Virus record (IMG/VR): IMGVR_UViG_2537561977_000030
Location: 1 to 24,811 of that record
Direction: 5' to 3' (one strand)
DNA from: a virus
Taxonomy: Duplodnaviria; Heunggongvirae; Uroviricota; Caudoviricetes
DNA length: 24,811 bases
The position numbers and the translations under genes were made by a program. Shown one piece after another: positions 2,198-23,867 of this stretch. Below the pieces are notes generated by a model. That model saw only the letters and a list, made by a program, of their open reading frames with translations, did not search any database and was not told the DNA's origin. Every line of letters begins with the position of its first letter. Position 1 is the stretch's first letter.

Positions 2198-2217
2198 AAG
2201 GCCCGATATCGGGCCTT
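2198..2217. terminator. Bidirectional hairpin between convergent U' and U genes
   Basis: Perfect 20-bp palindrome AAGGCCCGATATCGGGCCTT, flanked by an A-run on one side and a T-rich stretch on the other, at the centre of the invertible segment. Confidence 0.5.
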
Positions 2218-2220
2218 GTT

Positions 2221-2754: not shown

Positions 2755-2756
2755 CG

Positions 2757-5506: not shown

Positions 5507-5508
5507 AA

Positions 5509-6087
5509 TTAACTGCTCCCGTGGTTGTAACTACCGTTATAACGGGTAGTACTGTTGTAGCGAATGGCGACAGACTGATATTCCAGACTTGCCAGATGAC
5601 AGCGAGCCGGAGCAAAGGCAGCAAGCGTCTGACGTAACAGCGCCGCCTGATCATTAGTGATGGGCTGTTGAAGGATGACCCGATAGACAGCCCAGGCTTG
5701 TGCATCGCCGTGGACGAAAAGTCCGTTGTAACTGTGTTTACCGTCGTAGCCGATCTGCCCTGTCCCTTCAATCAGCTCCACTTCGCCGAAGCCAAAACGG
5801 CGGATAATTTCCCGGATTGACCACGGTGTTCCTTTATAGCGGTGTAGCTCGATAGCGGATTTGATAAGCATGCGGCGTACATCGTCAGATTCCGCCAGTT
5901 CCCAGCCATCGCCGAACAGCGAGAACTGCTCGCCCAGCCATGGCAGCGCGGAACTGTCGACGATATCGACGAGACAGACCATCAGTACGCTCAGGTCGAT
6001 GTTATCCAGCCGTCCGGCCAGTCTTCCCAGCGTTCTGAGACTGATATCACCCTCAAGCGGTGGCGGGAGTTGTAGCGCCTCAGCCAT
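5509..6087 (-). CDS. Baseplate/tail protein (P2 gpI / Mu gp48-like)
   Basis: 192-aa ORF immediately upstream of the fibre gene and overlapping the J-like gene end; position and size match. Confidence 0.7.
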   Translation of the reverse strand: MAEALQLPPPLEGDISLRTLGRLAGRLDNIDLSVLMVCLVDIVDSSALPWLGEQFSLFGDGWELAESDDVRRMLIKSAIELHRYKGTPWSIREIIRRFGFGEVELIEGTGQIGYDGKHSYNGLFVHGDAQAWAVYRVILQQPITNDQAALLRQTLAAFAPARCHLASLEYQSVAIRYNSTTRYNGSYNHGSS

Positions 6088-7183: not shown

Positions 7184-7521
7184 AGCAGTTCCTGAGTACG
7201 GGGTTGTCCGTCTGAGCCTTTCCAGCTCACCCGGAGCGTAAGATGTTCGCCGTCGACGGCGGGTTTAACCGACATAAGCTGGCAGCGGGGTTCCCAGCGC
7301 CTGATGGCATCGACGGATTCGCGAACCACATGCGTAATGGCCCGGTCGACAGGCCAGTCGATATAAAGGTGCAGATTACTGCCGAACTCCGGGCGATGCG
7401 GGTCGCTGCCGCGGGGAGTCCGCAGGATGATCTGAATGGACTGCCGGATATCATCCAGCCCCCGGACGATTTCGCCGGGAGCCTGCAGAGCCGGTTGCCA
7501 GAATACTGAGGTCGTTTTCAT
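7174..7521 (-). CDS. Baseplate wedge protein W (GPW/gp25 family)
   Basis: 115 aa, with the ILRTPRGS...WEPR pattern typical of P2 gpW-like proteins. Confidence 0.75.
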   Translation of the reverse strand: MKTTSVFWQPALQAPGEIVRGLDDIRQSIQIILRTPRGSDPHRPEFGSNLHLYIDWPVDRAITHVVRESVDAIRRWEPRCQLMSVKPAVDGEHLTLRVSWKGSDGQPRTQELLWR

Positions 7522-7553
7522 GGGGGGCAGTATTGCCCCCGGAAGGGAACGCC

Positions 7554-7574
7554 GATATTAAAGGCGTTTAAGAA
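7554..7574 (-). promoter_or_regulatory. Conserved 21-bp motif, copy A (candidate activator-dependent late promoter)
   Basis: GATATTAAAGGCGTTTAAGAA on the plus strand is 19/21 identical to 13346-13366. On the minus strand it reads TTCTTAAACGCCTTTAATATC, containing a TAATAT -10-like hexamer with no good -35. Confidence 0.4.
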
Positions 7575-7577
7575 ATC

Positions 7578-8090
7578 TCAGTGCGAGTGATGATTAGAGT
7601 TCTGACCATCAGACAGCATACTACCTGTCGAGTGGGCATTACCGTTAATTTCAAGGTCGCCATTCACCGTGGTGGTGTCAGCAGTCAAATCAATGGTTTT
7701 CCCCTTCAGGCTGATACCCACTGCAACCTCGATCACCACATGCTCAATACCTCCTTTGACCGTCAGCGTATGGGTCGCGCGGTTATAACTGAACTCCGCG
7801 CCATCCGCGTATTTCGTGCCCCGGACGTTTTTATCACTGAACGGCGGTTTATCGACGTCTGAGTACACCGCGCCCAGAATGACACCATCCTCGCCGTTGG
7901 CATCGAGCAGCACCTCAACCTGCTCCCCCACGTCAGGGAGCCAGTAATCCTTGTTATCCTGGGTATTGCGCTGCAGCACGTTAAGCCAGTTTGTGCGCAG
8001 GTTATCGCATTCAGGCAGACGAACGCGGGCCTGAACCCTGTCGGCATCAACGGCACTGACCGTACCGACCTGACGGGTGACACCTGTCAT
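7578..8090 (-). CDS. Baseplate spike/assembly protein V (P2 gpV / Mu gp45-like)
   Basis: 170-aa ORF with V-family-like sequence; position between D-like and W-like genes. Confidence 0.7.
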   Translation of the reverse strand: MTGVTRQVGTVSAVDADRVQARVRLPECDNLRTNWLNVLQRNTQDNKDYWLPDVGEQVEVLLDANGEDGVILGAVYSDVDKPPFSDKNVRGTKYADGAEFSYNRATHTLTVKGGIEHVVIEVAVGISLKGKTIDLTADTTTVNGDLEINGNAHSTGSMLSDGQNSNHHSH

Positions 8091-8106
8091 TTTTTCTTCT
8101 CCTTAA

Positions 8107-9240
8107 TCACCGTCGATGTACTGCCATCCGGGTGATAAACCGTGAGTTTCTGAGTTTTTGTTTTTTCCCTCTTGTGACTGGCCCCCGTGCCACTTCCAGC
8201 TCGGTGGTGTAGCCGCTGTTACGCTCAAACGCATGGCGGGCAGTGGTTATGAGCCATGGCCCGGATAACTGTCCAAAGCCCACCAGTTCAATTTTGTTGC
8301 CTGCTGTCAGTTGAGGCGTTCCCGTCAGCGTCAGGGAGCCGTTCTGCTGATATTCGTTATGTCTGGCCAGTGCTGAATCCGCTTTAATCCGGGCACTGTC
8401 CGGGTCGCTGACGCGGCTGTTAACTTTAAGTGAGTCAGCGCTGGTAACCTTACCGCCTTTGAGCTTTTTGTCGCTTTCACGGGTACCACCATCAGCTTCG
8501 TAGACGATCAGTTTTTTACTGCTGCTTTTCTGGTGTTTTACCTTTGCAGATTTATAGACCCGGTTGATGGTGTCACGCAGGGAAAAGCGGGCCACATCCT
8601 GCGGTTTTAACTGCCTGACCGGCTCCTGACTGCGCAATGTGGCCAGATGAGAAAAAATCAACTGGTCACTGACCACTTTCACTGCATAACCATACCCGCT
8701 GGCCAGCCGGCGCAGAAAACCCACGTCGGTTTCAGCATACTGGGTCACCCGGTCGATTCTGATGGACTCAATGCTGCCCACCAGTTTCAGTCGGTGCTTT
8801 CTGGCAATCCGCCCCGCAACAGCTGCCAGCGTGGTGTTCTCAAAACCACGGCTGGATTTAGTCCGCAGAGCACTGTTAACCGAGGTGGCCACCCCACGGA
8901 TAGCGACAACGGACGCGGGCGAACTCACTTCGATCTCGTCTATTGAGAATGTACCGCAGGACAGCAGTTTCTCGCCCTGATAACCCATTTTCAGCGTCAG
9001 CGTGTCACCCTTGCCCGGATACCACTTATCCAGCCAGCGGCCATCGGTGTCGTCCAGCTCCACCTCAATGGTATCGGACTCATTTTTGATGTTATCGCTC
9101 CAGACCACACGGGTGACATAAGGCGCGATATCAGAGGTGATATTTTTCTGCAGATACCACAGCGTGAACACCGGCGTCAGCACCTCGCTGACGCCGGTTA
9201 ACGCTGATGTGGCTTGCGCAGTGCTGTTTATCTCAGCCAT
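8107..9240 (-). CDS. Tail/baseplate hub protein (P2 gpD / Mu gp44-like)
   Basis: 377 aa; C-terminal ...GNKIELVGFGQLSGPWLITTARHAFERNSGYTTELEV resembles the gpD family; position after X and U. Confidence 0.7.
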   Translation of the reverse strand: MAEINSTAQATSALTGVSEVLTPVFTLWYLQKNITSDIAPYVTRVVWSDNIKNESDTIEVELDDTDGRWLDKWYPGKGDTLTLKMGYQGEKLLSCGTFSIDEIEVSSPASVVAIRGVATSVNSALRTKSSRGFENTTLAAVAGRIARKHRLKLVGSIESIRIDRVTQYAETDVGFLRRLASGYGYAVKVVSDQLIFSHLATLRSQEPVRQLKPQDVARFSLRDTINRVYKSAKVKHQKSSSKKLIVYEADGGTRESDKKLKGGKVTSADSLKVNSRVSDPDSARIKADSALARHNEYQQNGSLTLTGTPQLTAGNKIELVGFGQLSGPWLITTARHAFERNSGYTTELEVARGPVTRGKKQKLRNSRFITRMAVHRR

Positions 9241-9443
9241 GGGGCAATATCCTCTTCTGTGCGGGCATCTTCAGCCTCAATAACCGGGATCAGTAACAAC
9301 ACCCCGGAGGGCAGCACCGGCGTAATGGCCACGTGCGGATTGGCGGCAATAATCCGGGGATAGCCCAGCGGGTCACCGTAGTACTGCCATGCCAGCGAAT
9401 CCCAGCGCTCTCCGTCACGGGTAATATGTTCAAGAAACATCAC
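9228..9443 (-). CDS. Tail protein X (small, LysM-like)
   Basis: 71-aa ORF between the U-like and D-like genes, overlapping both. Confidence 0.6.
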   Translation of the reverse strand: MMFLEHITRDGERWDSLAWQYYGDPLGYPRIIAANPHVAITPVLPSGVLLLIPVIEAEDARTEEDIAPWLR

Positions 9444-10324
9444 ACACTCCTCGTCAGTATTCTGGCGGCCATTGCACTTAATCCCGGAGACATGCGGTTG
9501 AATGCTGTGCCAGCGGCGTTAAGCTGCCCGGAAACGGTATCCAGAGCACCTGCAATATTTCTTTTGTCCACACCACTCAGCGCAGACTGCGCTTGCTGTA
9601 CATACGTGGCTGCCTCACTGGCTGTTCTGGCCAGACTGATGGCTTCGGGCATGGATTCAGAGAGTGCATTAAATGCCGGAACACTTTTCCCCAGAGCTCC
9701 GGATATATTACCCAGTCCGCTCATCAGTCCCGGCACACGGGTCAGTGCGACAACGGGGTTACCCTTCATTTTCTGCGCCACCCGAACAGCACTGATAGTG
9801 GTCTGGAGTACAGACTGCGCCTGTTTCGCACAGTTGACGCCGTTACGGACGAACTGCGCCACCCCGGAAGGCGATGGAACAGCACCAGATACGGCCCCGG
9901 CACCGGGAACCTGCCTGCGTATTGCCGGCGGTTGCAGAGGATTTTTCGGGTCACCGGTGTATTCCCGGAGAGACACGGTGGCACTGACAGCCAGCACGTT
10001 ACCGGTGCTGTCTGTCTGCTCACTGGTTGCGGTCACATCGGTAATCACGAACCAGCCGCGATAGTCACCGTTGCCGAAGACCAGTGCCAGTGCCTGATGG
10101 GCCTTCATGGCTGTTCGCACTCTCGCCAGCTCCACGTCGGGCACACAATAATGCTGATGGAAGACCAGGCTTATCTGGATTTCGTCCAGCCTGTCGCCGA
10201 CGAACTGCAGGCCGGGTTTACCCCCGATGCGGGCATGCTCCGCATAATCGACGCCGGACGTGGCCTCGAAGCCGTCCCAGTAGGTAATCAGCTCAAACTC
10301 AATATCACCCAGTACGGCAAACAT
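9440..10324 (-). CDS. Tail protein (P2 gpU-like / Mu N DNA-circulation N-terminal type)
   Basis: 294 aa; N-terminal FAVLGDIEFEL...RIGGKPGLQFVGDRLDEIQISL... resembles the gpU family. Start shares a base with the tape-measure stop. Confidence 0.55.
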   Translation of the reverse strand: MFAVLGDIEFELITYWDGFEATSGVDYAEHARIGGKPGLQFVGDRLDEIQISLVFHQHYCVPDVELARVRTAMKAHQALALVFGNGDYRGWFVITDVTATSEQTDSTGNVLAVSATVSLREYTGDPKNPLQPPAIRRQVPGAGAVSGAVPSPSGVAQFVRNGVNCAKQAQSVLQTTISAVRVAQKMKGNPVVALTRVPGLMSGLGNISGALGKSVPAFNALSESMPEAISLARTASEAATYVQQAQSALSGVDKRNIAGALDTVSGQLNAAGTAFNRMSPGLSAMAARILTRSV

Positions 10325-12801
10325 CAGCGGTACTCCTTACGTTGTTTCTGAGCCAGCAGACGCTCCAGCATTTTTTCCAGCTCATGCAGGCTCATATTCA
10401 GGGCTCCAGTCAGCCCGGCAGGCGCTGCGGTTTCCTTACCATTGAGGAAAAACTGAGGATTAAAGCTGACCTGGATACCGCCAGACGCTCCACCGCCAGT
10501 TGCAGTTGCGCCACGGCCTGAATATCCGGCAGCCATGATTTCCGGCGACGGGATACGGGGAACATCCGGTGTCATTTCAGCGGCCAGGCGCTGCCCGGCC
10601 AGTGCAGCAAGCGGAGTGGTTCGCTGCAGGCCAATGGCGGCACCCTGCGCGATATTGTCACCAAAGCCCATAAACACGCGACTCGGCGAATGGATGCCCA
10701 GCTTTTCGCTGAACCAGTCACTGATGCTGTCACCCATTCCGGTTACGCTGGTTTTGAGCGACTCCCATTTGTTTCTGATGCCATTTATCAGCCCGTCGAT
10801 AAGATGACCACCGAAGTCGGTGAACTTCGCCGGCAGATCAACGCCGAGATATTTCAGCGCAGCCGCAAAGGCTTTATAAAGCAGCCCCGCCGGAGACCAG
10901 TTAACCAGCAGTTTACCAGTTCCCGCGATGCCGCCGTTAAAGGCTTCCTGAATGTCAGCCCAGCGCTGTTTAAACCAGCTACTGACTGCGCCCCAGTTGT
11001 GGTAGATAAGGTAAGCTGCTGCCGCAACGGCGGTGATAACGAGACCGATGGGATTCATCATCAGCGCCCGGCCAATCCAGAGAACGGCGCGTGCAGCAAT
11101 CATAAAACCGCGAACGAGGCTGCCCGTCAGAACTTTGCTGAGTTTCAGTCCTCCGCGGGTCAGTCGGCTGAATCCAGTGACAAGCCAGCGTAATTTGCCA
11201 CCTTCTCCGAGTGCGGTAGTCAGTCGACGCCAGTTGGTCCGGAGTAAAACAGCAGTTTTCCAGACGTTCACAAAGGGGGAAATAAGAAGATTCAGCCCCA
11301 GTTTGAGGCCAATAGTCGCTATCTTAATCGCAAGGAGCGCACTGATGAGCTTAAAAGCCCCACTGACAAATTGCGGGTGAGTCGCCACCCAGTGTTTTGC
11401 CCCCTGAATGAGTGGGATCAACTCCTGTGCCAGAGAAATAAAAGAGGGGGCGAGCTGATCGCCCAGCGTAATAGCCAGATCGCGACTGCTGACCATAAGC
11501 GCTTTAGTGGCTTCAGAGGGAGATTTCAGCCGCTGATCGTAAGCACTGGCAAGCAAATCGTTATCCGCAGCCCTGAGGGCACCGGCACGAATCTCGCGGT
11601 ACCTGTCCATGTTGGCCAGCATCGGGCGGATAAACGCCATGACCTGCATATCCGCGAACATATCGCCCAGACCAAAGTTTTTTGCCAGAGCCTGAAGTGC
11701 CTCATCTCTTGCCGTATCATTTTTTATTTTCATGGCGGATTTGAACCCGGCCAGAGCTTCGGGGCTTTTTGTATTGAGGTAACGCTCTATAACACTCAAC
11801 ATCCCTTCAATCGGAGAGATCCCCGCAGCCTTATAACTCGCAATAGATCCCTGCAAATCAATACCCAGGTCAGCAAACTGTTTCTGAGTATCGCGGGCAA
11901 AAATTTTGGTAAGAAAGTTTTTAAAGTTATTGGCCGCTTCGTCGGTGGAGCCCGCACCGATTTTTGCTATCTGGAGACTGGCCCCGATTTCAGCAACAGC
12001 CTCTTTTCCACTGGCAACGCCCGCCATCATTGGGGCCAGGGACTGCATCCATTTGACCTGATCCGGAATTTCAAATGACCCCTGATCACCGGCATAAGCC
12101 ATAATATTCTGGACGGCACCAAAATCTCTGGCGGCACCTTTCAGGGAGTTTTGCCAGACAGCGGCCACTTTTGCCCAGTCCTGAGATGACGTGCGTGTTG
12201 CCGTTGCCGCGCGGGCAATATCCGGCATCAGAAAACCGATATCTGACAAGTTATCAATATTGTCGCTGATGAGCGAACCCACCGCCTCCTGCAGCTCATC
12301 CTGATACTGATTGTATTTAAGTGCCCAGCCTTTTATCTGTCCGGCAAGTGCATCCCGCGTTTTATTGTCATATTTTGCGGTGATCGACATATCAATCATT
12401 TTGTCCTGAAAAGACATGGACTGCTGAACGGCCGGGGAAACCGTATGATAAACAGTCTGTGTCATGCCATACGCTTCAAGTCCCTGACCATACAGCGCCA
12501 TGCGGTTAGCTTTCAGCGCATCACTGGTCGCTGATGCCGCTGACAGGCGGCGCTGCTGGCGCTCAATTTGCTCCATGGTGCGGCTTACCCGCAGCAGCTC
12601 GCTGTTGAGACGCTGCATCCGGGAAGAACCCAGTTGACCATAACGTTCTGTTGCACGGGTTAAAGCGTTCTGACGTTCCTGCAGGCGGCGTGAGGTATCG
12701 CTCAGGGAATCAAGCGCACGGCGGGTACCGCTCATTGCAGAACGGAATGTGCTGCCAATCATCCCGCCGATAACAACGCCGACTGAAAACTGTCCCGACA
12801 T
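10324..12801 (-). CDS. Tail tape measure protein
   Basis: 825-aa ORF with an alpha-helical, Ala/Gly-rich central region and hydrophobic segments, placed between chaperone and baseplate genes. Confidence 0.85.
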   Translation of the reverse strand: MSGQFSVGVVIGGMIGSTFRSAMSGTRRALDSLSDTSRRLQERQNALTRATERYGQLGSSRMQRLNSELLRVSRTMEQIERQQRRLSAASATSDALKANRMALYGQGLEAYGMTQTVYHTVSPAVQQSMSFQDKMIDMSITAKYDNKTRDALAGQIKGWALKYNQYQDELQEAVGSLISDNIDNLSDIGFLMPDIARAATATRTSSQDWAKVAAVWQNSLKGAARDFGAVQNIMAYAGDQGSFEIPDQVKWMQSLAPMMAGVASGKEAVAEIGASLQIAKIGAGSTDEAANNFKNFLTKIFARDTQKQFADLGIDLQGSIASYKAAGISPIEGMLSVIERYLNTKSPEALAGFKSAMKIKNDTARDEALQALAKNFGLGDMFADMQVMAFIRPMLANMDRYREIRAGALRAADNDLLASAYDQRLKSPSEATKALMVSSRDLAITLGDQLAPSFISLAQELIPLIQGAKHWVATHPQFVSGAFKLISALLAIKIATIGLKLGLNLLISPFVNVWKTAVLLRTNWRRLTTALGEGGKLRWLVTGFSRLTRGGLKLSKVLTGSLVRGFMIAARAVLWIGRALMMNPIGLVITAVAAAAYLIYHNWGAVSSWFKQRWADIQEAFNGGIAGTGKLLVNWSPAGLLYKAFAAALKYLGVDLPAKFTDFGGHLIDGLINGIRNKWESLKTSVTGMGDSISDWFSEKLGIHSPSRVFMGFGDNIAQGAAIGLQRTTPLAALAGQRLAAEMTPDVPRIPSPEIMAAGYSGRGATATGGGASGGIQVSFNPQFFLNGKETAAPAGLTGALNMSLHELEKMLERLLAQKQRKEYR

Positions 12802-12876
12802 AGTGGTTAACCTCCGGGGAAGGTGAAAAGACGTGGGGGGATAACGCAGAACAGCCGCTGCTGGCGGCTGTCTGTA

Positions 12877-13134
12877 CTATGATTTGTCGCCGTACTCGCT
12901 TCTGATTTGCTCTTCAGCCTGCTCCAGCCACATCTCCAGATCGTCAGTATCGAGGGCATCAATCTCCCCCGGCTGAAACCTGAACCACCTTGCCAGCAGC
13001 CCCTGCGCCTGCGTCAGCGCCTTCGTTGCTCTCACCCATCCCCGTGACGAGCTGAAATCGTTTCTGCAACTGCAGGTAATCAGCCAGGTCCATATTGTCG
13101 AGATCTTCCGGGAGAAGACCAGTACTGCGGGCAA
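12877..13134 (-). CDS. Frameshift-extension ORF of the tail assembly chaperone (E'-like)
   Basis: Overlaps the chaperone ORF in the +1 (equivalently -2) frame and ends just before the tape measure, the position conserved for chaperone frameshift products. Confidence 0.5.
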   Translation of the reverse strand: MPAVLVFSRKISTIWTWLITCSCRNDFSSSRGWVRATKALTQAQGLLARWFRFQPGEIDALDTDDLEMWLEQAEEQIRSEYGDKS

Positions 13135-13294
13135 TCAGCGGTTCGTCCCAGTCAGCCGGGTTTTTGCTGATTTTACGTACTTGCTTCAGGTCTTTGACCG
13201 TCAGACGTTTCAGTTCAACCAGCTCAATTCTGGTGCCTGCAGCAGTGGTGAAGGGATAAGACAGCGTAAAAATATCGGATGAGGTCTGTGACAT
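12959..13294 (-). CDS. Tail assembly chaperone (P2 gpE / Mu gp41-like)
   Basis: 111-aa acidic ORF directly upstream of the tape measure; AGGAG 7 nt before the ATG. Confidence 0.65.
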   Translation of the reverse strand: MSQTSSDIFTLSYPFTTAAGTRIELVELKRLTVKDLKQVRKISKNPADWDEPLIARSTGLLPEDLDNMDLADYLQLQKRFQLVTGMGESNEGADAGAGAAGKVVQVSAGGD

Positions 13295-13345
13295 GATGTG
13301 CTCCTGTGTAAGTTCAGGGCAGTATGTCGGGAGAAGCGCGTGACG

Positions 13346-13366
13346 GATATTAAAGGAGATTAAGAA
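13346..13366 (-). promoter_or_regulatory. Conserved 21-bp motif, copy B (candidate late promoter upstream of the chaperone gene)
   Basis: GATATTAAAGGAGATTAAGAA; on the minus strand it follows the hairpin at 13371-13384 and precedes the chaperone ATG by about 50 nt. Confidence 0.4.
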
Positions 13367-13370
13367 GAAG

Positions 13371-13384
13371 GGGCCGGAGCCCCT
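13371..13384 (-). terminator. Hairpin followed by a T-rich tract on the minus strand, downstream of the 73-aa ORF
   Basis: GGGGCCGGAGCCCC has a 5-bp GC stem and is followed on the minus strand by TTCTTCTT. Confidence 0.4.
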
Positions 13385-13390
13385 GTGATG

Positions 13391-13612
13391 TCAGCAAGTG
13401 CGAAAACCCTTGCAGTTACGCAGGAAAGCGATGAGAAGCGTCTTTCCCTCCGCTTTGCCTGTGCCGGAGAACCAGTGGTCGGGCGGCTCCCATGCTTCAA
13501 TCAAATCGGCCAGTTTGCGGGCCTTTGAACGTGTGCAGTCAATCGGGTCATTGGTTTTACGGGTGTTACCCCCCGGAATATCAAGGAGGGTAAACCACGT
13601 ACCATTTGACAT
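13391..13612 (-). CDS. Hypothetical 73-aa protein between tail tube and chaperone (possible moron)
   Basis: ORF only; weak ribosome-binding site; has its own downstream hairpin; sits where this tail-module layout normally has no gene. Confidence 0.35.
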   Translation of the reverse strand: MSNGTWFTLLDIPGGNTRKTNDPIDCTRSKARKLADLIEAWEPPDHWFSGTGKAEGKTLLIAFLRNCKGFRTC

Positions 13613-13663
13613 GCCCGGTGACGCACAGCGCCCCCCCTTTGTCAGTCAGTTCAACGCTCACCG

Positions 13664-14185
13664 TCAGCCCCCGATATTGATACGGTAGTCAGTCAGCTGG
13701 TCAACGCCACCGACCCGGAAGATGTTGGCCAGATAGTCCAGTTGCAGCAGCTCTTCACCATCCAGTACCTGTCTGATATACGTGCAGGTGAAGCTACTGG
13801 AGAACTCGGCGTTCTCGTGCTGTTTGAACGTCCCCAGCGGGTTCTTCTTGAACATAATCGTCAGGAAGGTGACCAGCGGGATTTCGTCGATCAGCCCCTG
13901 CGAACTGTAGCGCTGGACGCTTGAGCGACACTGCAGCGCCAGCGACCTGTACGGGTTCGCGGCAGACAGCATCGCATCGCGGTAAAAGCTGTTCCATTTG
14001 ATTTCGCCTTCCAGTTTGTCAAAACCAGCCGGGAGTTCCACCTTACCCACCATCCCCAGTGCCTTGTGTTCCTGCATAATCATGGAGACATCGGGGAGTT
14101 TAACTTCCTCAGCCCGTCCCAGCAGGTTAGTACCATCCAGATAGATGTTGGCATTCGTGATTCGGTTTATCTCAATCTTTGACAT
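13664..14185 (-). CDS. Tail tube protein (Mu gpM / P2 FII-like)
   Basis: 173-aa ORF immediately after the sheath gene; start shares a base with the sheath stop. Confidence 0.8.
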   Translation of the reverse strand: MSKIEINRITNANIYLDGTNLLGRAEEVKLPDVSMIMQEHKALGMVGKVELPAGFDKLEGEIKWNSFYRDAMLSAANPYRSLALQCRSSVQRYSSQGLIDEIPLVTFLTIMFKKNPLGTFKQHENAEFSSSFTCTYIRQVLDGEELLQLDYLANIFRVGGVDQLTDYRINIGG

Positions 14186-15618
14186 CAGTTGCCCCCTTTC
14201 AGGGTTAACAGGTATTCCGAGGTGATCTCCGTCTCATACGTCAGCCGCTCCAGCGGTGGCGGCGGCGTGTATTTGTAGCTCAGCAACAGGTGACCGGCGG
14301 CCAGCTCCGTCTCCGGATTGCGGGCCGGATCAAACCAGCAACGGAAGCCCAGTACCGCACCATCACCAGTCATTTTGCGACCGTAGGCGTTGACCGACTC
14401 CGTCAGTGCATCAATCAGCGCCTGAGTAATCGGCATGTCGATGTACTGCTGGCTGAAGTAACGAATGGACTCGTTGATCACATCACCGGTGCGGCGAACG
14501 TTCTCAAAGTTACGCATATGGGTGACCGTTGGCCATGCTGCCGTCCGGTTACCCCACAGACGAAGGCCGCTGCCGTAACTGCTGAATACCGTGGTGATCC
14601 CCTGTTCGTTAAGCAGGTTCACCTCGCTCTGCGGATCGTCAATCATTGCCGACAGCTGGCGCTCCACGCCGGTGATCCCCAGAATTTCCTGATTGGAGGA
14701 TGACCACCAGTACCCTTTGTCCAGGTCGACTCTGGCACGCAGGCCCGCCGCACGCTGGCTCAGTGGCTCCAGACGCTCCGTGTTTGTCACCGGGTCATAT
14801 ACCTTCACATGCGGGTAGCACAGGCGGACACGGTCAGAGCTGGTATTGAAATTAATGGTGCCTTCCGGGCCACGTCCCGCCAGAGCCTGCGCAAAAGTGG
14901 TACCAACCGGCGCATCAATATAGGTTACTGCTCCCAGTTTCTCAGCCATGGCGATAAGCTCAACCGAGACGCTGTTCTGGGTGCAGAATACCGGCGCAAT
15001 CAGGATTTTGGCGAAGTAGCCAAACAGGTTAAAACTGTCGTTAAGCAGCTTCATGCCGGTACGGTTGCCCGCCGCGTTAACGGCACCGATGATATCAGCC
15101 GGGGTGACTCTGGTCGGATCAGCATAGTTATAGCTGGCCTTCACCGTTGCATCTGCAGCAATGCTTTTACCCAGGTTAGTAATCACCCCGGTCTGTGCAT
15201 CAAGCGAGTAGTCCTGACCTTCAACATAAGGCTGACCGTCGCTGTCCGGTTTCAGTACCAGCTGCGCGACCACCGGATTAGCCAGCCGGGCTCTGCCTGT
15301 CGCCTTGTCGAACGACACATTCTCACTGACCACAGCGGTTTTATGCACAGACGGATCGAGTACGTTAATGACCAGAACGGTGCCTGCACCATGGTCATAA
15401 ATCGCATCCAGCGCCTGCGGAATGGTAAAGCCGTTGAACTGGCTGCCAAATGCTGCAGCGTCTTTCTCAGACAGGCACTGTACCAGCGTATTGACATCCC
15501 CCATTGGTGCGGTACCAATCAGGCCAATAACGGCAGATTTCACCGTTTTAACCGGGCGGGCACCGTTTTCCACTTCAATGGTTTCGGGACCATGCAGATA
15601 GTTAGCTGACATGGGCAT
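14185..15618 (-). CDS. Contractile tail sheath protein (Mu gpL / P2 FI-like)
   Basis: 477-aa ORF with sheath-like sequence, upstream of the tube gene. Confidence 0.85.
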   Translation of the reverse strand: MPMSANYLHGPETIEVENGARPVKTVKSAVIGLIGTAPMGDVNTLVQCLSEKDAAAFGSQFNGFTIPQALDAIYDHGAGTVLVINVLDPSVHKTAVVSENVSFDKATGRARLANPVVAQLVLKPDSDGQPYVEGQDYSLDAQTGVITNLGKSIAADATVKASYNYADPTRVTPADIIGAVNAAGNRTGMKLLNDSFNLFGYFAKILIAPVFCTQNSVSVELIAMAEKLGAVTYIDAPVGTTFAQALAGRGPEGTINFNTSSDRVRLCYPHVKVYDPVTNTERLEPLSQRAAGLRARVDLDKGYWWSSSNQEILGITGVERQLSAMIDDPQSEVNLLNEQGITTVFSSYGSGLRLWGNRTAAWPTVTHMRNFENVRRTGDVINESIRYFSQQYIDMPITQALIDALTESVNAYGRKMTGDGAVLGFRCWFDPARNPETELAAGHLLLSYKYTPPPPLERLTYETEITSEYLLTLKGGN

Positions 15619-15856
15619 CCTCCGTTTTCACCTCGCTGTCACCGCCGTTCCTGCGCTTTGGTGACTGCACAGCCGGTGTGCCGGCGGGTTTAGTTTCTTC
15701 AGATACCGGCGTCAGATGCTTCAGCGCCACCAGTACCTTCACGTAGTCATGCTCCTCCGGCAGGGAAACAGTCTTCCCCGGCCAGAGCAGGATTTCGGTT
15801 CCGTCCGACAGCGTGACGCCGCTGGCCGGGCCGGAATAGCGGTATTCTTTCATCAC
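15602..15856 (-). CDS. Hypothetical small protein (head-tail joining region)
   Basis: 84-aa ORF overlapping its neighbours in operon fashion. Confidence 0.5.
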   Translation of the reverse strand: MMKEYRYSGPASGVTLSDGTEILLWPGKTVSLPEEHDYVKVLVALKHLTPVSEETKPAGTPAVQSPKRRNGGDSEVKTEDAHVS

Positions 15857-16317
15857 TCGCTTTCCTCATAGTTCACTTCGGTTAACAGCGGGCCGGACGG
15901 TAAATCGCTGTCTTCGATAAAGACGCTTTCAGTCGCGAAGTCGAGGGCGTATTGCCAAAGCCCCCTGACTTCACCGATAAACACCTCGCGGGTCAGCCAG
16001 ATACGGCGGCGGCAGCCGGGCGGAGTGTGGCCACCGAGAATGCGGCGGACAGCATCCAGGACATTAATCGCCCCTTTTTTACCGTTGAGCTGGCGGAAGA
16101 CCACCGTGACGCAGAGCTGGATAGTCTGAGGCTGGATCACCGCACCGGTATCATCCGGCCTGTCGAAACGCGATCCTGCATAGCTCAGCAGCAACGCCCC
16201 GACAGAATGATTGAGGCGATATTCGGACGGCTTTTCCGGGAAGTACTCAACCTGCAGCTGAGGCAGCTTCTCGCGTAACCGGGCCAGTACCGCATCAAGG
16301 ACGGGCAGAACATTCAT
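15853..16317 (-). CDS. Mu gp37-like protein (DUF1834-type)
   Basis: 154-aa ORF in the position of Mu gp37, overlapping neighbours. Confidence 0.55.
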   Translation of the reverse strand: MNVLPVLDAVLARLREKLPQLQVEYFPEKPSEYRLNHSVGALLLSYAGSRFDRPDDTGAVIQPQTIQLCVTVVFRQLNGKKGAINVLDAVRRILGGHTPPGCRRRIWLTREVFIGEVRGLWQYALDFATESVFIEDSDLPSGPLLTEVNYEESE

Positions 16318-16763
16318 CAGTATTTCTCCAGTAAGCCGTCACGACCGCCGAAAGTGGCCGGGCGGCTGCGTACACGAAACTCTCCTGGCTCAGGCACATC
16401 TTTCTGAGTGGACGGCAGCCCCAGCGTAAGCCTGTTATCACGTAACTCCTTCAGTTGCCGCAGCGCTTCTTTGTGGTCATCCTTCACCGTATCCGGGAGG
16501 TCACCTTCCGGGCGGCGGGCGTAGAGCCGGTAACGGACCAGCGTGATGGCAATGTCCCGCAGAACGGTCGGTATCTCCGCCAGCGGCAGGATATAGCGTC
16601 CGCGCAGATGGGCATCAATCAGCTCGTCGGCATAGCGGATACAGCTCTCCACCACACGGGTATTCACTGTCGCAGGCGAGTCGAAGTCCATCTCTTCACT
16701 GGTGAGCTCGATCAGCGTTCGTTCCGGCACCTGCTCAAGCAAATCCTCCAGGGTGCAGTACAT
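16317..16763 (-). CDS. Mu gp36-like protein (DUF1320-type)
   Basis: Starts at the ATG at 16763 (MYCTLEDLLEQ...), 1 nt after the upstream gene's stop. The longer track ORF to 17033 overlaps the upstream gene and is rejected. Confidence 0.6.
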   Translation of the reverse strand: MYCTLEDLLEQVPERTLIELTSEEMDFDSPATVNTRVVESCIRYADELIDAHLRGRYILPLAEIPTVLRDIAITLVRYRLYARRPEGDLPDTVKDDHKEALRQLKELRDNRLTLGLPSTQKDVPEPGEFRVRSRPATFGGRDGLLEKY

Positions 16764-16764
16764 G

Positions 16765-17103
16765 TCACACCCCGCGCAGGATACGAATGACGTCGCCTTC
16801 ACCCCCGGCTTCATCAAGTGCAATACCACAGGATTTACCGTCGCCGGACTGCGGCACGGCTCTGGCCTGAGCATCTGACTGAACAGCCACACCACTGCTG
16901 ACCGCAGCACCGGCCTCAACAGCAATAATGCCCAGAACGCTAACCGGCGTACTGTCGCCGGTAACAGCATCCACTTCGGCAACCCCGAGCGCTGCGGCAC
17001 CGGCTTTACAGGGGGTATTATCTGCCCCGACAAAACGCTGCTGTGCCAGTTCTGCCCCTGCCGTTACGGTTGTGATCAGAATGACCTGCTGAGTGGTTCC
17101 CAT
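16765..17103 (-). CDS. Small Ala/Gly/Val-rich head protein (DUF2190-like, possible decoration protein)
   Basis: 112 aa; strong Shine-Dalgarno TAAGGAGG 4 nt before the ATG; composition typical of DUF2190-type proteins. Confidence 0.5.
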   Translation of the reverse strand: MGTTQQVILITTVTAGAELAQQRFVGADNTPCKAGAAALGVAEVDAVTGDSTPVSVLGIIAVEAGAAVSSGVAVQSDAQARAVPQSGDGKSCGIALDEAGGEGDVIRILRGV

Positions 17104-17112
17104 AACGCCTCC

Positions 17113-17484
17113 TTATTTACTGATACCGGTGATGAGATACCCGGCATCGCCACCCACCACGGCGACTTTGTAGATATCGGTATAACGGCAGTACTTCACC
17201 TTGCCGCCGGCCCCGTCGTATTTGTCTGCAACAGGCATCCCCTTACGACGCAGGGTGTAGCCGAAGGACGGCTCGTTCTCGTCCGCGCTGTCCGCCCCGA
17301 CGGCACGCTCGGTGTCATATTCCACAAAGGCGGTTTTTCCGAAGGTCGGTACACGCACGCCTTCCTTGTCCGTCAGCACGACGGGGAAAATACGTTCGCC
17401 GATGAATGCAGCATTTTTATAGCCACGGGCGATACTGGTCAGTACCGGATCAACGACACGTTTACCTTTTAAGTAATCAGACAT
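17113..17484 (-). CDS. Hypothetical 123-aa head-region protein
   Basis: ORF between the protease/scaffold and the DUF2190-like gene; no family recognised. Confidence 0.45.
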   Translation of the reverse strand: MSDYLKGKRVVDPVLTSIARGYKNAAFIGERIFPVVLTDKEGVRVPTFGKTAFVEYDTERAVGADSADENEPSFGYTLRRKGMPVADKYDGAGGKVKYCRYTDIYKVAVVGGDAGYLITGISK

Positions 17485-17498
17485 GCTCTCTTCTTAAA

Positions 17499-18614
17499 TT
17501 ACAGGCAGCGTGCGACAGCAGCCTCATAGCTGATGCCTTCTTTTTTCGACAGGGCCACTGCTTTCTGATGCAGGGCCAGACGCTCAGGATCGGCTTCCGC
17601 AAACTCCGCCACATCCACCTTCACCGCGTCGCCGACACGATCCTTTGTGGCCTGTTCGGCGAAGTTCATCACCGGCTCCCCGTCGGAGAGCAATGAACGG
17701 AAGGCGGTGGCCAGCGGTGTGCGGCTTTCCCCCTCAGCAAACTCCACCGGCTTGTCGCCACCGGCGACGGCATCCAGCAGGGCAACCACCACGGAGGAGG
17801 CGCGGGGAGCCAGACGACCCTCTGCGACCAGTTTTTCTGCAAAGGCCACATTGTCCTTATGCAGTTGCTCCTGTCTGGCCTGTGCATCACGCGCATCGCG
17901 ATCAGCAGCCTGCTGCTTCAGGTGGCGGTTCTCCTCCTGAAGGGCTTCAATCTCTTCTTTTGTCATCGATGATTCCTCGTTACTTGCGGAAGACGGCACA
18001 TGGCCTGTCTCACTGAATTGCGCACCTGCTGCATCCTGCGACGGTGTGTCGCGGTACGCCTCTTCGCGCAGACTGTTGAGCTGCCATTCCGGCAGGACTT
18101 TTTCTGCCTCGTCCAGACTGAAGCGGGCGATCAGAAAATCGCGCAGCTTTCCCCACAGTGAGGCATTCGTGATGGCCTGCCAGTCGGCGAACTCCACCAC
18201 ACCTTCTTCCTGCTCACTGAAGGACACCTGTTTCAGCCCTTTGACGGAAGGTGGCTGTGCCCCGAGAAAGCCCACATGGCGCAGGTAGAGTACGCCGGGC
18301 TTCGGATTGGACGGTGAATCCGGGAGGTAAAAAGAGGCGGACACTTTTTTGAATCGTCCGTCGGTGACCATCTCAGCAAACTGCGGGTCCAGTTGGGCAG
18401 GCTCTGCCATCAGATCGACGCCGCTGAGCGACAGGGTTTTCACCCAGCCCCACGCCGGGTCTTCCGTTCTGGGATGACCAATCACGAGTGGTGCTTCATG
18501 GACGGACGGGTCATAGGCTTTCACGCAGGCGGCAAGATCGTCTGGCGTGAACGGCAGTTTTTTGCCGTGCATATCGGTATGAGTACCGGCTTTAAAAATG
18601 TGAATGGCTGACAT
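17499..18614 (-). CDS. Head maturation protease/scaffold (Mu gpI-like)
   Basis: 371 aa; an N-terminal protease-like domain and a charged coiled-coil C-terminal half (EEIEALQEENRHLKQQAADRDARDAQARQEQ) typical of scaffolds. Confidence 0.65.
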   Translation of the reverse strand: MSAIHIFKAGTHTDMHGKKLPFTPDDLAACVKAYDPSVHEAPLVIGHPRTEDPAWGWVKTLSLSGVDLMAEPAQLDPQFAEMVTDGRFKKVSASFYLPDSPSNPKPGVLYLRHVGFLGAQPPSVKGLKQVSFSEQEEGVVEFADWQAITNASLWGKLRDFLIARFSLDEAEKVLPEWQLNSLREEAYRDTPSQDAAGAQFSETGHVPSSASNEESSMTKEEIEALQEENRHLKQQAADRDARDAQARQEQLHKDNVAFAEKLVAEGRLAPRASSVVVALLDAVAGGDKPVEFAEGESRTPLATAFRSLLSDGEPVMNFAEQATKDRVGDAVKVDVAEFAEADPERLALHQKAVALSKKEGISYEAAVARCL

Positions 18615-18828
18615 TTTGCTGTCCCGCGTTATGTTGTCGGAGACAGTTTGTGAGAAATGCAGGCCCGGCGATTTTAATCTGCTTTAGAAAACATCAGGGG
18701 AGAAGGACAGGGAAAGCAATGCGGTGAACCGGAGGCGGTTATAAAACAGAGGCTGTAAAGCCTTTATAAAGGTAATACAGCCCCTCAGTTGCTGGCAATG
18801 ATAAATCACCCGCCTGAAGGGAGAAACC

Positions 18829-19287
18829 TCAGCGACGGGCCGCTGATTCAAGATGGCGGACAATGGTATCGAGGATGGGGATTACCACTTCAGGCTGTAG
18901 TTCTCCATCCCCCGTCACCGGCAGGAACGGGCGGGCCGGAAGTTCAACGGACTCATTACGCCCCGTTTTACCCCCGAACTGGTGAATGGCACCGTAAACA
19001 ACGTTGGTCCCCACAACAGCCTGCCGGTCGTCATGGTCGGTTGATACTGACCCCATCAGACGCCCGGTATCCTGCAGTGTCTGTCCGTCACGTTCTTCCG
19101 CTGCCAGCGAGGGCATCCACCCCGGACGCCCCTCATCAAGAAAGTTAAACTGTGTTTCCGCCAGCAGGGTTCCGGCGATTTTGCGCATCGCGGGCTCCAT
19201 GTCTGTGGCAGCAAGATCCAGCGCACGGAGGCTCCGGCGCAGGGAGTCATCGTTAATGGAGATACTGACCAGATTGTCGGAAGCCAT
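18829..19287 (-). CDS. Virion morphogenesis protein (Mu G-like)
   Basis: 152-aa ORF directly downstream of the F-like gene; size and position match Mu G. Confidence 0.6.
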   Translation of the reverse strand: MASDNLVSISINDDSLRRSLRALDLAATDMEPAMRKIAGTLLAETQFNFLDEGRPGWMPSLAAEERDGQTLQDTGRLMGSVSTDHDDRQAVVGTNVVYGAIHQFGGKTGRNESVELPARPFLPVTGDGELQPEVVIPILDTIVRHLESAARR

Positions 19288-20111: not shown

Positions 20112-21108
20112 GCAGACGCCCCCAGATATTTGCCACAAAGAGAATGCGGGCCAGCCGTTCCTGCAGATCGTCCGTGTTCATCTGAGGGTAGAGCTCCGCC
20201 AGTTCGCCCAGCAGCTCAGACGGGTTAACCCCATTTTCGACCCGCTTAAACAGAGGTGCCAGGACGGGTTCCAGCGTGCCATTTAACGCGCCTCCGTTCA
20301 TCAGAATGTCCAGCGCGTCGTCAAGCTGCTGCTGAGCCTGAATATCGGCATCAATCGCCTCGGCAAATGACAGCGGCAACATGTTCTTCTCGCGTTCTGA
20401 CGGTGGTGTCTCGTCAATATCGCCGTCCTGCAGCTGGTACTCACGCTTAAAGTATTGCGGGGTCAGACGCAGACCCGCCCGGGTGAGTTTTTCGTCGCGG
20501 GTGGCACGGGTGTCATCAATGGCCTCCTGTTCCCACATGGCCCAGACCGGACACGGCACATCGCCGAAGTTCAGGGTGACCACCGTTCTGATGACCTGAT
20601 TCACTGCCGCCTGAATGATGTCCGCATCCGCATCGCGGATATCAGCCGTTACCTCCAGCCCGGCCTGTGCAGAGGCCTTGTTACTGTTCGCTTCCGTGGT
20701 CTGATTCTGACCGAGTAATGCAATGGAGATCTCACTGCGTGACAGCGTGATCAGCTCGCGGAATACCTCGCTGCTGTCCGCCTTGCCATCCGCGGCTTTG
20801 AGTTCGATGCTGCTGTCATCGGGGATGGCGGCCACCGCGTCCTCCACCATCTGCTCCATGGAGTCCAGCAGTTTTTCAATCTCTGCATCATTTGCACCCC
20901 TCGGGTGCTTACCGATCACCCACGGGGAGCCAAACTTTTCGGCAAAGCGGAGCCAGAATTTCATCCCGCCTTTCTTGAAGGCGACCGGCCAGAAGCACAT
21001 GGACAGATCCGGAAAACCGTAAGGATTGTCATAGGATGCATCCTGTGCCGGCACCACGAATTTTGACGGTGACAACAGCTCACCCTCCACACCCGCATCA
21101 CGTGCCCG
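20092..21108 (-). pseudogene. Portal protein (Mu gp29 / DUF935-type), N-terminally truncated remnant
   Basis: About 335 codons where DUF935 portals run about 500. An in-frame stop lies immediately upstream at 21109-21111, and there is no credible start or ribosome-binding site. Confidence 0.65.
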
Positions 21109-21145
21109 TCATGGAATTCTCCCGCCCTGACAGGGAGGACTCGCA

Positions 21146-21418
21146 ATGATTACCCCACAGGAAGCACGACAGCGCACCCGAACCCTTGTTGAACACTATG
21201 TCAACGAGTGTGAATACCGCGACCTCACCGATGTGAAGCACGTCCTGACGGCGCTAATCAGCATGGCCGCTCAGGCCATTGTGGCGACCAACGGAAAGGC
21301 GGCTGCCCTGCAGGTACTGGTGAACACACTCACCCACACGGCAGAGCATGAGGTGCCGTACCGGATGGAAACCACTGCAGAAGGCGGCCTGCACATCACC
21401 GTCAGCCGGAAGCACTGA
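21146..21418 (+). CDS. Hypothetical 90-aa protein
   Basis: ATG preceded by GGGAGG; first gene of a plus-strand operon. Confidence 0.55.
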   Translation: MITPQEARQRTRTLVEHYVNECEYRDLTDVKHVLTALISMAAQAIVATNGKAAALQVLVNTLTHTAEHEVPYRMETTAEGGLHITVSRKH

Positions 21419-21427
21419 GGGCGCGGC

Positions 21428-21724
21428 ATGACACGAAACACCGAACTCACCCGCACCGCCCTCTACCGTCTGGCCCTGCAGCGTTTCGGGCCGGACGCAC
21501 AGGCCCTGAAACTGACAGAAGAGGCCGCTGAACTGGCGGCCAGTGCTGCCCGCAATCTGAACGGACAGGGCAGCGAAAGTGACCTCGCGGCAGAGCTGGC
21601 AGACGTGGAAATCATGACAGAGCAACTGCGCCTTCAGGGGATGGACCGGCTGATTGACTTCCACAAACAGAAAAAACTGGAACGTCTGGCTGCACGACTG
21701 GGCGTGATTTACACGAACGAGTAA
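21428..21724 (+). CDS. MazG-like nucleotide pyrophosphohydrolase (small, phage type)
   Basis: 98 aa with an EEAAELAASAA...ELADVEIM arrangement matching the EExxE...ExxD metal-binding pattern of the MazG/HisE-like fold. Confidence 0.55.
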   Translation: MTRNTELTRTALYRLALQRFGPDAQALKLTEEAAELAASAARNLNGQGSESDLAAELADVEIMTEQLRLQGMDRLIDFHKQKKLERLAARLGVIYTNE

Positions 21725-21738
21725 CCGGGAGGCATTCA

Positions 21739-21955
21739 ATGGCTGACATACTCAGGGAAATCACCGCATGGACACTGATTCTTACTGGCCTGGCGACATG
21801 CCTCAGTACGGGGGGCAGCCCTGGCTGCCCTGCTGATGCACATAACAACACAGTGGTTATGGGAAAAGCTTAAAGCAGCATACAGCCTGAAAGAGCTGTC
21901 CGACGCTGTCCGGGCATGGAAACGGCAGAAAAATACCGGAGATACTGAACAATGA
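21739..21955 (+). pseudogene. Small membrane-protein gene apparently frameshifted at a G6 run
   Basis: ATG at 21739 with a GGGAGG ribosome-binding site reads MADILREITAWTLILTGLA... The downstream frame, which ends in a TGA overlapping the next gene's ATG (ATGA), is reached by removing one G from 21810-21815. Confidence 0.35.
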
Positions 21956-22635
21956 CAGATCAGAATAAACACATTGAGAAACTGAAAAAGTTGCTGGCGC
22001 TGGCTGCATCCGGCAACCCGCACGAGGCCGCTCTTGCACTGCGCCGTGCCCGTAAACTGATGGATGTTCACGGCATCACACATTCCGACATAGCCATGAG
22101 TGATATTGATGAAACCATCAGTCACTACTGGCCGACAGGCAGCCTCCGTCCACCGCGCTACATGCCAGGCCTGATGAACATCATCCGCGAGGCATTTGGT
22201 GTTAACTCCATCATTCACCCCGGCACATATCCGGGTGTGGGGTTCTACGGCAACCGGGAACGGGCCGCACTGGCTGCGTACACCTGGGAGGTGCTGGCCC
22301 GCCAGTTGAAAAAGGCGCGTCAGCAATATATCAGCGCACAGAACAAAAGAATAAAAACTGCCACCCGTACCAGCCGTGGTGACCAGTTTGCTGAAGGCTG
22401 GGTGCTGGCCGTTATCAGTGAAATACAGTCCTTCGCCCTGACCGATGACGAACGTGAACTGATGCAGCAGTGGCTGGAACATAAATACCCGCAAACGCAA
22501 ACCACCAGGGCGCGTAAACCGGGAAGAAGTCGCAATGGCGACGCCTCGCGCTATGCGGGGTTTCGTGAAGGGCAGAACGTCAGACTGCACCGCCCGGTCA
22601 GTGGGCAGGAACAACAGAAACTGGAGGCCAGATGA
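21952..22635 (+). CDS. DUF2786-like domain protein
   Basis: 227 aa; N-terminal KHIEKLKKLLALAASGNPHEAALALRRARKLM motif as recalled for DUF2786; ATGA start overlap with the upstream gene. Confidence 0.5.
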   Translation: MTDQNKHIEKLKKLLALAASGNPHEAALALRRARKLMDVHGITHSDIAMSDIDETISHYWPTGSLRPPRYMPGLMNIIREAFGVNSIIHPGTYPGVGFYGNRERAALAAYTWEVLARQLKKARQQYISAQNKRIKTATRTSRGDQFAEGWVLAVISEIQSFALTDDERELMQQWLEHKYPQTQTTRARKPGRSRNGDASRYAGFREGQNVRLHRPVSGQEQQKLEAR

Positions 22636-22862
22636 TTACGCTATCAGGTAACAGCCGGAAATTAAAAGCCTGCCGAATATCTGCCAGATACCTTTTTGCC
22701 CGCGCCTTTTTTAAGAACGTCAGGCCGGGGATCACAATTGGTGTTATTGCCGGACGCGAACAGGTTGAAAAATACATGTCAGGTGCATGGTGGAATAACG
22801 ACCCTGTCATTGCTGCCCGTAATATTCATATCAGTTGGGGGGATATTCAGAATGACTGCTGA
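22632..22862 (+). CDS. Hypothetical 76-aa protein
   Basis: ATG overlaps the upstream stop (ATGA). An alternative frame (22696-23067) overlaps, so the assignment is uncertain. Confidence 0.35.
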   Translation: MITLSGNSRKLKACRISARYLFARAFFKNVRPGITIGVIAGREQVEKYMSGAWWNNDPVIAARNIHISWGDIQNDC

Positions 22863-23067
22863 ATCTGTTGTATGTGCCCTGTTCTGGTATTGTTTTGTCG
22901 GTTGGTGTACTGCTGAACTGCACCGCCGTTCAGGGTTTTATTCACGTTACAGTGGTGCCAGCTACTGGATTAGCTGGTCGGTGATGTTCCTGTGCTGGCC
23001 TGTGGCGCTTCCTTTATATGTCGATTATATCGGTGGCGCAGGTAAAAGGAGCAACGATGATGACTAA
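22852..23067 (+). CDS. Small membrane protein (71 aa, two predicted transmembrane segments)
   Basis: ATG at 22852; hydrophobic stretches VVCALFWYCFVGW and WISWSVMFLCWPVALPL. Confidence 0.4.
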   Translation: MTAESVVCALFWYCFVGWCTAELHRRSGFYSRYSGASYWISWSVMFLCWPVALPLYVDYIGGAGKRSNDDD

Positions 23068-23509
23068 ACAACGTCTTATCCAGCTCATTCATATTGCCCG
23101 TAATGAACTGGGTATGGATGAAGACACCTACCGCCAGATGTTACAGGGGCTGACCGGTAAAGCCTCAACCAAAGGAATGGATACCACACAACTAAACTGC
23201 GTGCTGGAATCCATGAAAAGGAAAGGCTTTCGCGTTAAGCCTGCCGGAAAAGCCAGCTCCGGTTTACCGCTGGATAACCATCCGCAGTCCAGGAAAATCC
23301 GTGCGCTATGGCTTGAAATGGCTGCTGCCGGCATTGTTCGTGACCGTTCAGAAAATGCATTAGCGCGGTGGATCAAGCGGGAAACGGGCATCAGCGCCCT
23401 GCGCTGGCTCAATACTGAACAGGCAAGCAGTGTTATTGAGAAACTGAAGAAGTGGCAGCACAGAGCTGCGGGAGTAAAACATGAGCGACCTGAATCAGTT
23501 TCGAAGTAA
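23057..23509 (+). CDS. gemA: GemA-like protein (Mu gp16 family, DUF1018)
   Basis: MMTKQRLIQLIHIARNELGMDEDTYRQMLQGLTGKAS...MKRKGF...SRKIRALWLEMAAAGIVRDRSENALARWIKRETGISALRWL matches the gp16 family pattern; AAAGGAG before the ATG. Confidence 0.75.
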   Translation: MMTKQRLIQLIHIARNELGMDEDTYRQMLQGLTGKASTKGMDTTQLNCVLESMKRKGFRVKPAGKASSGLPLDNHPQSRKIRALWLEMAAAGIVRDRSENALARWIKRETGISALRWLNTEQASSVIEKLKKWQHRAAGVKHERPESVSK

Positions 23510-23867
23510 AGGGCCGGAACTCCTGGTGGAGCTGGCACAGCATACCTCTGAGACCGTTCGCGAGATTATTGATATTGAGCCCGAAGTTGCCGACCAGATT
23601 GGTCAGGCCGTCGCGAACCGCATGATGCAGGTCTGGGGCGGGCAAAACGTTTATTTTCCTATGGGGATGAGATGGAAGATAAGCCAGCGTGACCGTGAAA
23701 TCTATGAGGCGTTTAACGGACGTAACCACCACGAACTGTCCCGCAGATTCAGGGTTTCAGTTCCCTGGATTTACAACCTGGTGAAGCGCGTAAGAAAGGA
23801 AGAAATCAGCCGGTTGCAGGGGCAGTTATTCGAAGACGATGATGAACCGGATGACAGCCGGGATTAA
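23481..23867 (+). CDS. mor: Mor/C-family transcriptional activator (Mu middle operon regulator-like)
   Basis: 128 aa; C-terminal GGQNVYFPMGMRWKISQRDREIYEAFNGRNHHELSRRFRVSVPWIYNLVKRVRK matches the Mor/C helix-turn-helix region; directly follows the gemA-like gene, as in Mu. Confidence 0.8.
   Translation: MSDLNQFRSKGPELLVELAQHTSETVREIIDIEPEVADQIGQAVANRMMQVWGGQNVYFPMGMRWKISQRDREIYEAFNGRNHHELSRRFRVSVPWIYNLVKRVRKEEISRLQGQLFEDDDEPDDSRD

Follow-up and report, generated by a model that had tools for sequence, protein, structure and literature searches.

A run of six G residues (G6) splits a small membrane-protein gene in the window, that is, in the whole stretch of 24,811 nt of DNA analysed here. 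We consider this run to be a real and heritable +1 frameshift, likely introduced by slippage, in a dispensable early gene of a BcepMu-like E. coli prophage, and we give this reading a probability of about 0.85. The gene and its immediate surroundings contain the following features.

21727-21732, plus strand: Shine-Dalgarno sequence GGGAGG, read directly from the sequence and the same in relatives.
21739-21873, plus strand: ORF of the N-terminal fragment, 44 aa (MADILREITAWTLILTGLATCLSTGGSPGCPADAHNNTVVMGKA), ending in TAA at 21871-21873.
21768-21836, plus strand: ORF of 22 aa in an alternative frame, the ATG of which gives a 61-aa product (P0055) in alleles with four G residues (G4).
21808, plus strand: linked G>A substitution (Ala24>Thr), the lineage marker, from alignment with EC958, AR_0081 and PhiKM.
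21810-21815, plus strand: G6 homopolymer, a +1 insertion relative to the five G residues (G5) of relatives, read directly and by alignment.
21816-21955, plus strand: C-terminal part of the ancestral gene, residues 25/26-71, in the shifted frame, located by tblastn.
21952-22635, plus strand: DUF2786/DUF7168 gene, 227 aa, with its own GGAG 10 nt upstream.

The run GGGGGG was found at 21810-21815, where the original prediction had placed it, and the two signals that had been joined across it were also recovered. The ATG at 21739 follows GGGAGG at a spacing of 6 nt, and the downstream frame ends in a TGA (21953-21955) that overlaps the ATG of the next gene at 21952 as ATGA. When one G was removed, the two frames joined into a 71-aa protein, exactly the sequence that had been proposed. 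As read in the window, the 44-aa ORF keeps residues 1-25 of the native protein and the remainder is out of frame. The wild-type frame resumes at 21816, 5′ of the ATG (21836) that begins a stand-alone C-terminal ORF of 39 aa. This ORF is not preceded by a Shine-Dalgarno sequence, and a look-up of its 39-aa product in the protein collection returned no called gene. The run by itself is statistically ordinary (GGGGGG occurs 9 times on both strands of the window, against 16.5 ± 5.8 expected from shuffles) and it has significance only through comparison with relatives.

The relatives AR_0081, EC958 (ST131), phage PhiKM and 2014C-3075 hold a single 216-bp CDS of 71 aa with G5 at this position. The alternative that the region is non-coding in relatives, named with the original prediction as what would overturn it, is thus contradicted, and its central claim, one small gene split by one extra G, is borne out. 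The 71-aa orthologue (WP_000763554.1 / WP_000763553.1 in EC958, JJ1886 and PhiKM, called 'hypothetical protein') has the same position, ribosome-binding site and stop/start overlap; its DNA is 98% identical to that of the window and the repaired product differs from it in one residue, Thr24. Unlike this intact orthologue, the window has G6 in place of G5 and the G>A substitution at 21808; what its gene yields is a 44-aa product, followed by a stretch that is not translated. A tblastn search with the intact protein aligned residues 1-27 to one frame; residues 25-71, with 100% identity, fell in the following one (frame 2). The extra G is the only indel across the early arm (21100-23840) relative to an intact relative. 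A stretch of 901 bases surrounding the site was matched in 621 complete E. coli genomes (95-99% identity), and each of the full-length matches listed spans 900 bases. The orthologue follows a MazG-like gene of 98 aa and precedes the DUF2786/DUF7168 gene, with gemA and mor further downstream. L001-L004 and all the loci fetched show this same gene order, and in the divergent member L098 the gene is also followed by DUF2786. In the intact gene the overlap of the stop with the DUF2786/DUF7168 start (ATGA) predicts translational coupling.

The repaired 71-aa protein is itself on public record (P0011 / WP_305876732.1). It matched phrog_3958 over positions 1-71 of the 71 profile positions (E 3.9e-41, 139.6 bits), and no significant family was found for it in Pfam. 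One transmembrane helix was predicted, with a Kyte-Doolittle 19-residue maximum of 1.98 at residues 14-32; the hydropathy maximum of the 44-aa product is 1.39, under the transmembrane threshold. These sequence comparisons support the repaired product as the ancestral protein. The gene of the divergent branch (P0049, L098) has stayed open over 71 aa and its N-terminus is hydrophobic, at only 62% nucleotide identity in the first half; the C-terminal half is 91% identical. Ala-Gly-Phe is encoded there as GCC GGA TTC, and the gene contains no homopolymer of 5 or more. The conserved length and hydrophobic pattern in this branch, together with the PHROG match, are the evidence for a functional product of the intact ORF. 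Analysis of dN/dS in the 216-bp gene had no power, with only 4 variable sites and pN/pS of about 1. These 4 sites (21739-21955) make up 5 DNA alleles in 39 intact copies, and the surrounding 1.49 kb (21146-22635) has 130 variable columns. The gene is absent in phage Phi06_2974 B (73% DNA match), which fits an accessory role. For annotation, the split ORF should be entered as one frameshifted phrog_3958 pseudogene, not as two small genes.

The exact 44-aa product was found on 13-14 contigs from at least 6 samples and has been deposited as STD36048.1 / UniRef A0A376FQ30. Its carriers include NCBI UFYN01000002.1 and assemblies of SRR10491784, SRR9425317, ERR591353 and SRR23544680. Five carrier loci were compared at the DNA level; they combine A21808 with G6, and over the early arm their identity to the window is 99.92-99.95%, so that all six sequences of the window lineage carry the linked pair. 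In L006, L008 and L009 the prophage is undeleted and still has its transposase, MuB-like ATPase and Gam. These three loci and L007 have an identical right end (...CCCTTCA), beyond which the chromosomal flanks of the four are unrelated, indicating four insertion sites. A phage lineage has integrated at several sites with the gene already broken. Neither lysogeny nor transposition requires the gene, and this in a widespread family of E. coli prophages that includes the ST131 prophage.

The window itself is a defective prophage located between aes/hemH/adk and gsk/ybaL. Bcepmuvirus-like traits are seen in the presence of GemA and Mor and in late genes that diverge from the early genes, and the record of a related phage, PhiKM, assigns it to Bcepmuvirus. 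Relative to the intact 36.5-kb prophage of strain 2014C-3075, the window lacks 12.85 kb, and the junction of this deletion is as follows.

21100-21108: deletion junction, with imperfect 9-bp microhomology ACG[C/T]GCCCG.

The deletion takes the first 160 codons of the portal gene (its N-terminal third), the terminase, the lysis genes, dam, the repressor, transposase A/B (with the MuB-like ATPase) and gam. It is common to L007 (UFYN01) and L010 (SRR23544680) and absent in L006, L008 and L009, which keep the rve transposase, the ATPase and Gam that the window has lost. The presence of G6 in these undeleted prophages indicates that G6 is older than the 12.85-kb deletion.

A homopolymer error in sequencing or assembly, with a true sequence of G5 and an intact gene, had been put forward as one cause of the split. 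The assembly gives some ground for suspicion. Window positions 1-19240 are 100% identical to the E. coli draft contig ADUP01000053.1 (GCA_000188815.2), and four private differences of one base each, all in homopolymers, set this contig apart from its nearest relatives. Pyrosequencing errors are known to cluster in homopolymers of 5 or more (PMC3045373); a literature search on the assembly (ADUP01 / GCA_000188815) gave no record of its sequencing platform. Sister prophages at the same chromosomal site in UFYN01 (L092) and CP065611.1 (L089) were compared with the window over 17.3 kb. Only three indels were found in this span, all of them one-base deletions in runs of six; they are listed with the fourth difference below.

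263: A6>A5, in the invertase gene, private to the window assembly.
4581: C6>C5, in the IS transposase gene, private to the window assembly.
8159: T6>T5, near the 3′ end of gpD, private; the product is 377 instead of 384 aa, only in ADUP01.
24710: A8>A7, in the last gene, product 197 instead of 214 aa, separating the window from L006-L009.

The sister prophages have full-length genes for the invertase (190 aa), gpD (384 aa) and the major head protein (317 aa). The four private deletions look like homopolymer under-calling or very recent mutation. At 24710, the shifted stop of the last gene is also the exact end of the window. The G tract resembles these sites in coming from the same assembly, in which the under-called runs are of 6-8, but it differs from them in two respects. 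G6 is an insertion, an over-call in direction, whereas the private differences of the assembly are all deletions; and UFYN01, a sister genome, has the longer run at the other four sites and retains G6. The same G6 with A21808 is present in at least five other loci from independent samples; among the carriers are an NCBI assembly with long contigs and several assemblies of public runs in which the neighbour genes are all intact. G6 carriers showed 0-2 other frame-breaking indels per 1.7-2.7 kb, equal to the module-dependent baseline of reference-quality G5 genomes. Judged by the sequences shared among independent assemblies, the error reading is effectively refuted and we regard it as very unlikely. 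The look-up of the truncated product, the linked SNP and the sister loci served here as tests that separate an inherited frameshift from an assembly error without recourse to reads.

The original prediction had also paired the G tract with an A-run frameshift in the invertase gene. This pairing was not upheld. The invertase deletion is private to the window assembly and absent in the sisters at the same site, while G6 is shared, so the pairing joined two unrelated events. The invertase frameshift has a different origin, probably artefactual or very recent. The invertase gene (1-572, minus strand) was also examined in the protein collection, where an identical N-terminal fragment of 110 aa occurred in 94 blocks. 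The fragment occurs in P2-like, P1-like and Mu-like prophages, in some cases in clean Illumina-type assemblies (L014 and 15 similar places). The invertase A-run thus looks like a recurrent frameshift or an error hotspot in invertases of the Gin/Cin/Pin type.

The length of the G tract was surveyed in larger populations. With a census pattern that allowed 3-9 bases at the tract in IMG/VR and metagenome contigs, G5 was found in 26 of 26 IMG/VR contigs and in 11 of 11 metagenome contigs. G6 occurred in none of the 528 complete E. coli genomes carrying the segment, and in none of the 565 copies of the unbiased censuses combined. A scan of GTDB representative genomes gave only one match, a 388-bp contig with G5. 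This low-coverage contig (L011, NZ_MINN01000051.1) belongs to an assembly of Rossellomorea aquimaris (Bacillota) and carries the G5 gene of the E. coli prophage. It is almost certainly contamination with E. coli-phage DNA, and a protein in UniRef (P0030) is named after that organism.

Nine distinct 44-aa products were found in a larger protein collection, and G6 occurs on several haplotypes. The window G6 is of type T12/T24. G6 on the T12/A24 haplotype is represented by P0003 (48 index blocks), and G6 on the I12/A24 haplotype by P0004 (19 contigs) and P0005 (10 contigs). The copies of these three products come from many samples, with many flanks and right-end modules. The matching intact alleles are present on at least 1000 contigs each. 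The G5 allele with Thr24, the lineage SNP, was seen on one contig (P0011), which may be the lineage ancestor or a revertant. A tree was made from 1.49 kb with the tract masked, using 47 sequences (30 haplotypes). G6 was scattered on this tree, with at least 7 changes between G5 and G6 by Fitch parsimony, and two G6 sequences were identical to G5 haplotypes over the 1.49 kb. On this tree 25 differences separate the window lineage from the closest G5 sampled, and 36 separate it from any other G6. Part of the scatter could have come from recombination between prophages and not from independent slippage or transposition.

Look-up of the predicted 31/32-aa products of G4 and G7 alleles returned none. 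This result is misleading because gene callers report G4 as a 61-aa fusion starting at ATG 21768 (P0055). Ten G4 alleles were sampled, and 7 of them come from megabase contigs where 3-6 additional indels occur and the neighbour genes are broken up. In these seven copies (L079-L081, L083-L085 and L087) small indels disrupt the transposase, Gam, GemA and further genes, which marks the assemblies as noisy. The other three (L078, L082 and L086) are in clean-looking assemblies. Noisy long-read assemblies add spurious tract variants to the protein collections.

Variation in both directions bears on the idea of slipped-strand switching, which the original prediction had offered beside sequencing error. 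Slippage as the origin of the mutation is likely, and that part stands; the switching part found no evidence. As a phase-variable switch, the tract would turn the protein ON (G5) or OFF (G4/G6), reversibly and at a useful rate. The G6 alleles on several haplotypes and the G4 alleles in L078, L082 and L086 accord with such a switch, as do the 7 or more state changes on the local tree, the G6 sequences equal to G5 sequences over 1.49 kb, and P0011, whose G5 with the lineage SNP could be a revertant. However, P0011 is equally explained as the lineage ancestor. The tract is only 5-6 bases long, well under typical contingency-locus lengths, and homopolymers of contingency loci are typically 7-8 nt or more for high-rate slippage. 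All six sequences of the window lineage are G6 despite different hosts, different insertion sites and both deleted and undeleted forms. The absence of G6 among the 565 copies of the unbiased censuses indicates that an OFF state is rare and not balanced. The divergent branch encodes Ala-Gly as GCC GGA; the tract is thus not conserved, which argues against a selected switch. Phase-variable genes of Neisseria, Haemophilus and Campylobacter are similar in having a G run in the 5′ half of a small membrane-protein gene, with existing alleles of one G more or less. They differ in that the window tract is of 5-6 nt, invariant in its lineage, rare and missing in the divergent branch, and the resemblance is formal only. 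We consider a reversible switch unlikely.

A weaker form of this idea, a low-rate two-way (G4/G5/G6) switch or a tract that is the target of selection for inactivation, also has a low probability in our estimation. It keeps that probability because of the 7 or more state changes, the presence of G6 at many insertion sites and the unusual invariance of the gene (4 sites in 216 bp against 130 in 1.49 kb). If it were true, the small membrane protein would be costly or only conditionally useful to the lysogen, for example as a Kil-like toxin or an exclusion factor, and loss-of-function alleles would arise repeatedly at the hotspot and spread with phages that are still mobile.

The two frames might also be decoded on purpose, through programmed +1 frameshifting or transcriptional slippage that yields full-length protein from G6. 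Transcriptional slippage can occur on homopolymer runs, and the G run is the exact point at which the two frames meet. The split arrangement is nevertheless not conserved, since all 565 unbiased copies are single-frame G5, and no known +1 shift site or stimulatory element was found. G6 is short for slippage by RNA polymerase, which is best documented on longer A/T runs. Purposeful decoding is in our view extremely improbable. Programmed frameshifting was rejected on the census, in which the two-frame arrangement occurred in 0 of the 565 unbiased copies.

A heritable slippage frameshift is therefore retained as the explanation of G6, and the events most likely ran as follows. Replication slippage added one G to the ancestral G5 in a mobile transposable phage that was still intact, together with or after the G>A substitution at 21808. 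The frame now shifts after codon 25 and leaves a 44-aa peptide without the second half of the transmembrane helix or the charged C-terminal helix. With both of these lost, the allele is very probably a null allele, and the 44-aa product has presumably lost its function. The stop now lies 79 nt before the DUF2786 gene, so that the coupling through ATGA is lost; the downstream gene keeps its own GGAG and any polar effect would be weak. The allele then spread to several chromosomal sites by transposition or lysogeny, and the copy between aes and gsk later took the 12.85-kb deletion, the IS insertion and further decay to become the form seen in the window.

The case is similar to the slippage frameshift pseudogenes of decaying prophages and genomes in the one-base gain, the short run, the clonal inheritance and the recurrence at a hotspot. 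It is also similar in that a non-essential gene is hit in a prophage that is decaying by deletion, IS insertion and other frameshifts. It is unlike them in that the mutation is older than the decay and is carried by complete, evidently mobile prophages at four sites. The G6 allele is an ordinary slippage frameshift in an accessory gene, and no new biology is needed to account for it.

Several other changes were seen in the window. A second inherited homopolymer insertion is the C7 run at 13631-13637 (plus strand), where CCCTCC in relatives has become CCCCCCC. A small gene adjoining the tail tube gene, 93 aa long in L004 and L094, has its first 7 codons shifted by this change. The C7 run is common to L007, L010, L092 and L095 and, like G6, consists of a substitution and a one-base gain. 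In the major head gene, a 570-bp in-frame deletion (317 to 123 aa) lies between 12-bp direct repeats (GCTGTCCGCCCC) at 17287-17298. It is private to the window assembly, the full gene being present in L007, L010, L089 and L092, and may reflect either a genuine deletion or a collapse in the assembly.

An IS element at about 4056-5338, with a DDE_Tnp_1 transposase called as 431 aa on the plus strand, interrupts the tail-fibre gene. UFYN01 (L092) has the element as well, and the other relatives L090 and L093 lack it. CP065611.1 (L089) probably has it too, because the alignment is colinear across the element, although no gene is called there. Look-up of the window protein at 587-1663 matched only the ADUP01 contig. 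An invertible segment of the G type was found at 633-3721, bounded by inverted repeats of about 35 bp (30 of 35 positions matching). The segment is flipped in UFYN01 (L092) relative to the window and CP065611.1 (L089), indicating that the invertase was recently active in the lineage, even after the IS insertion.
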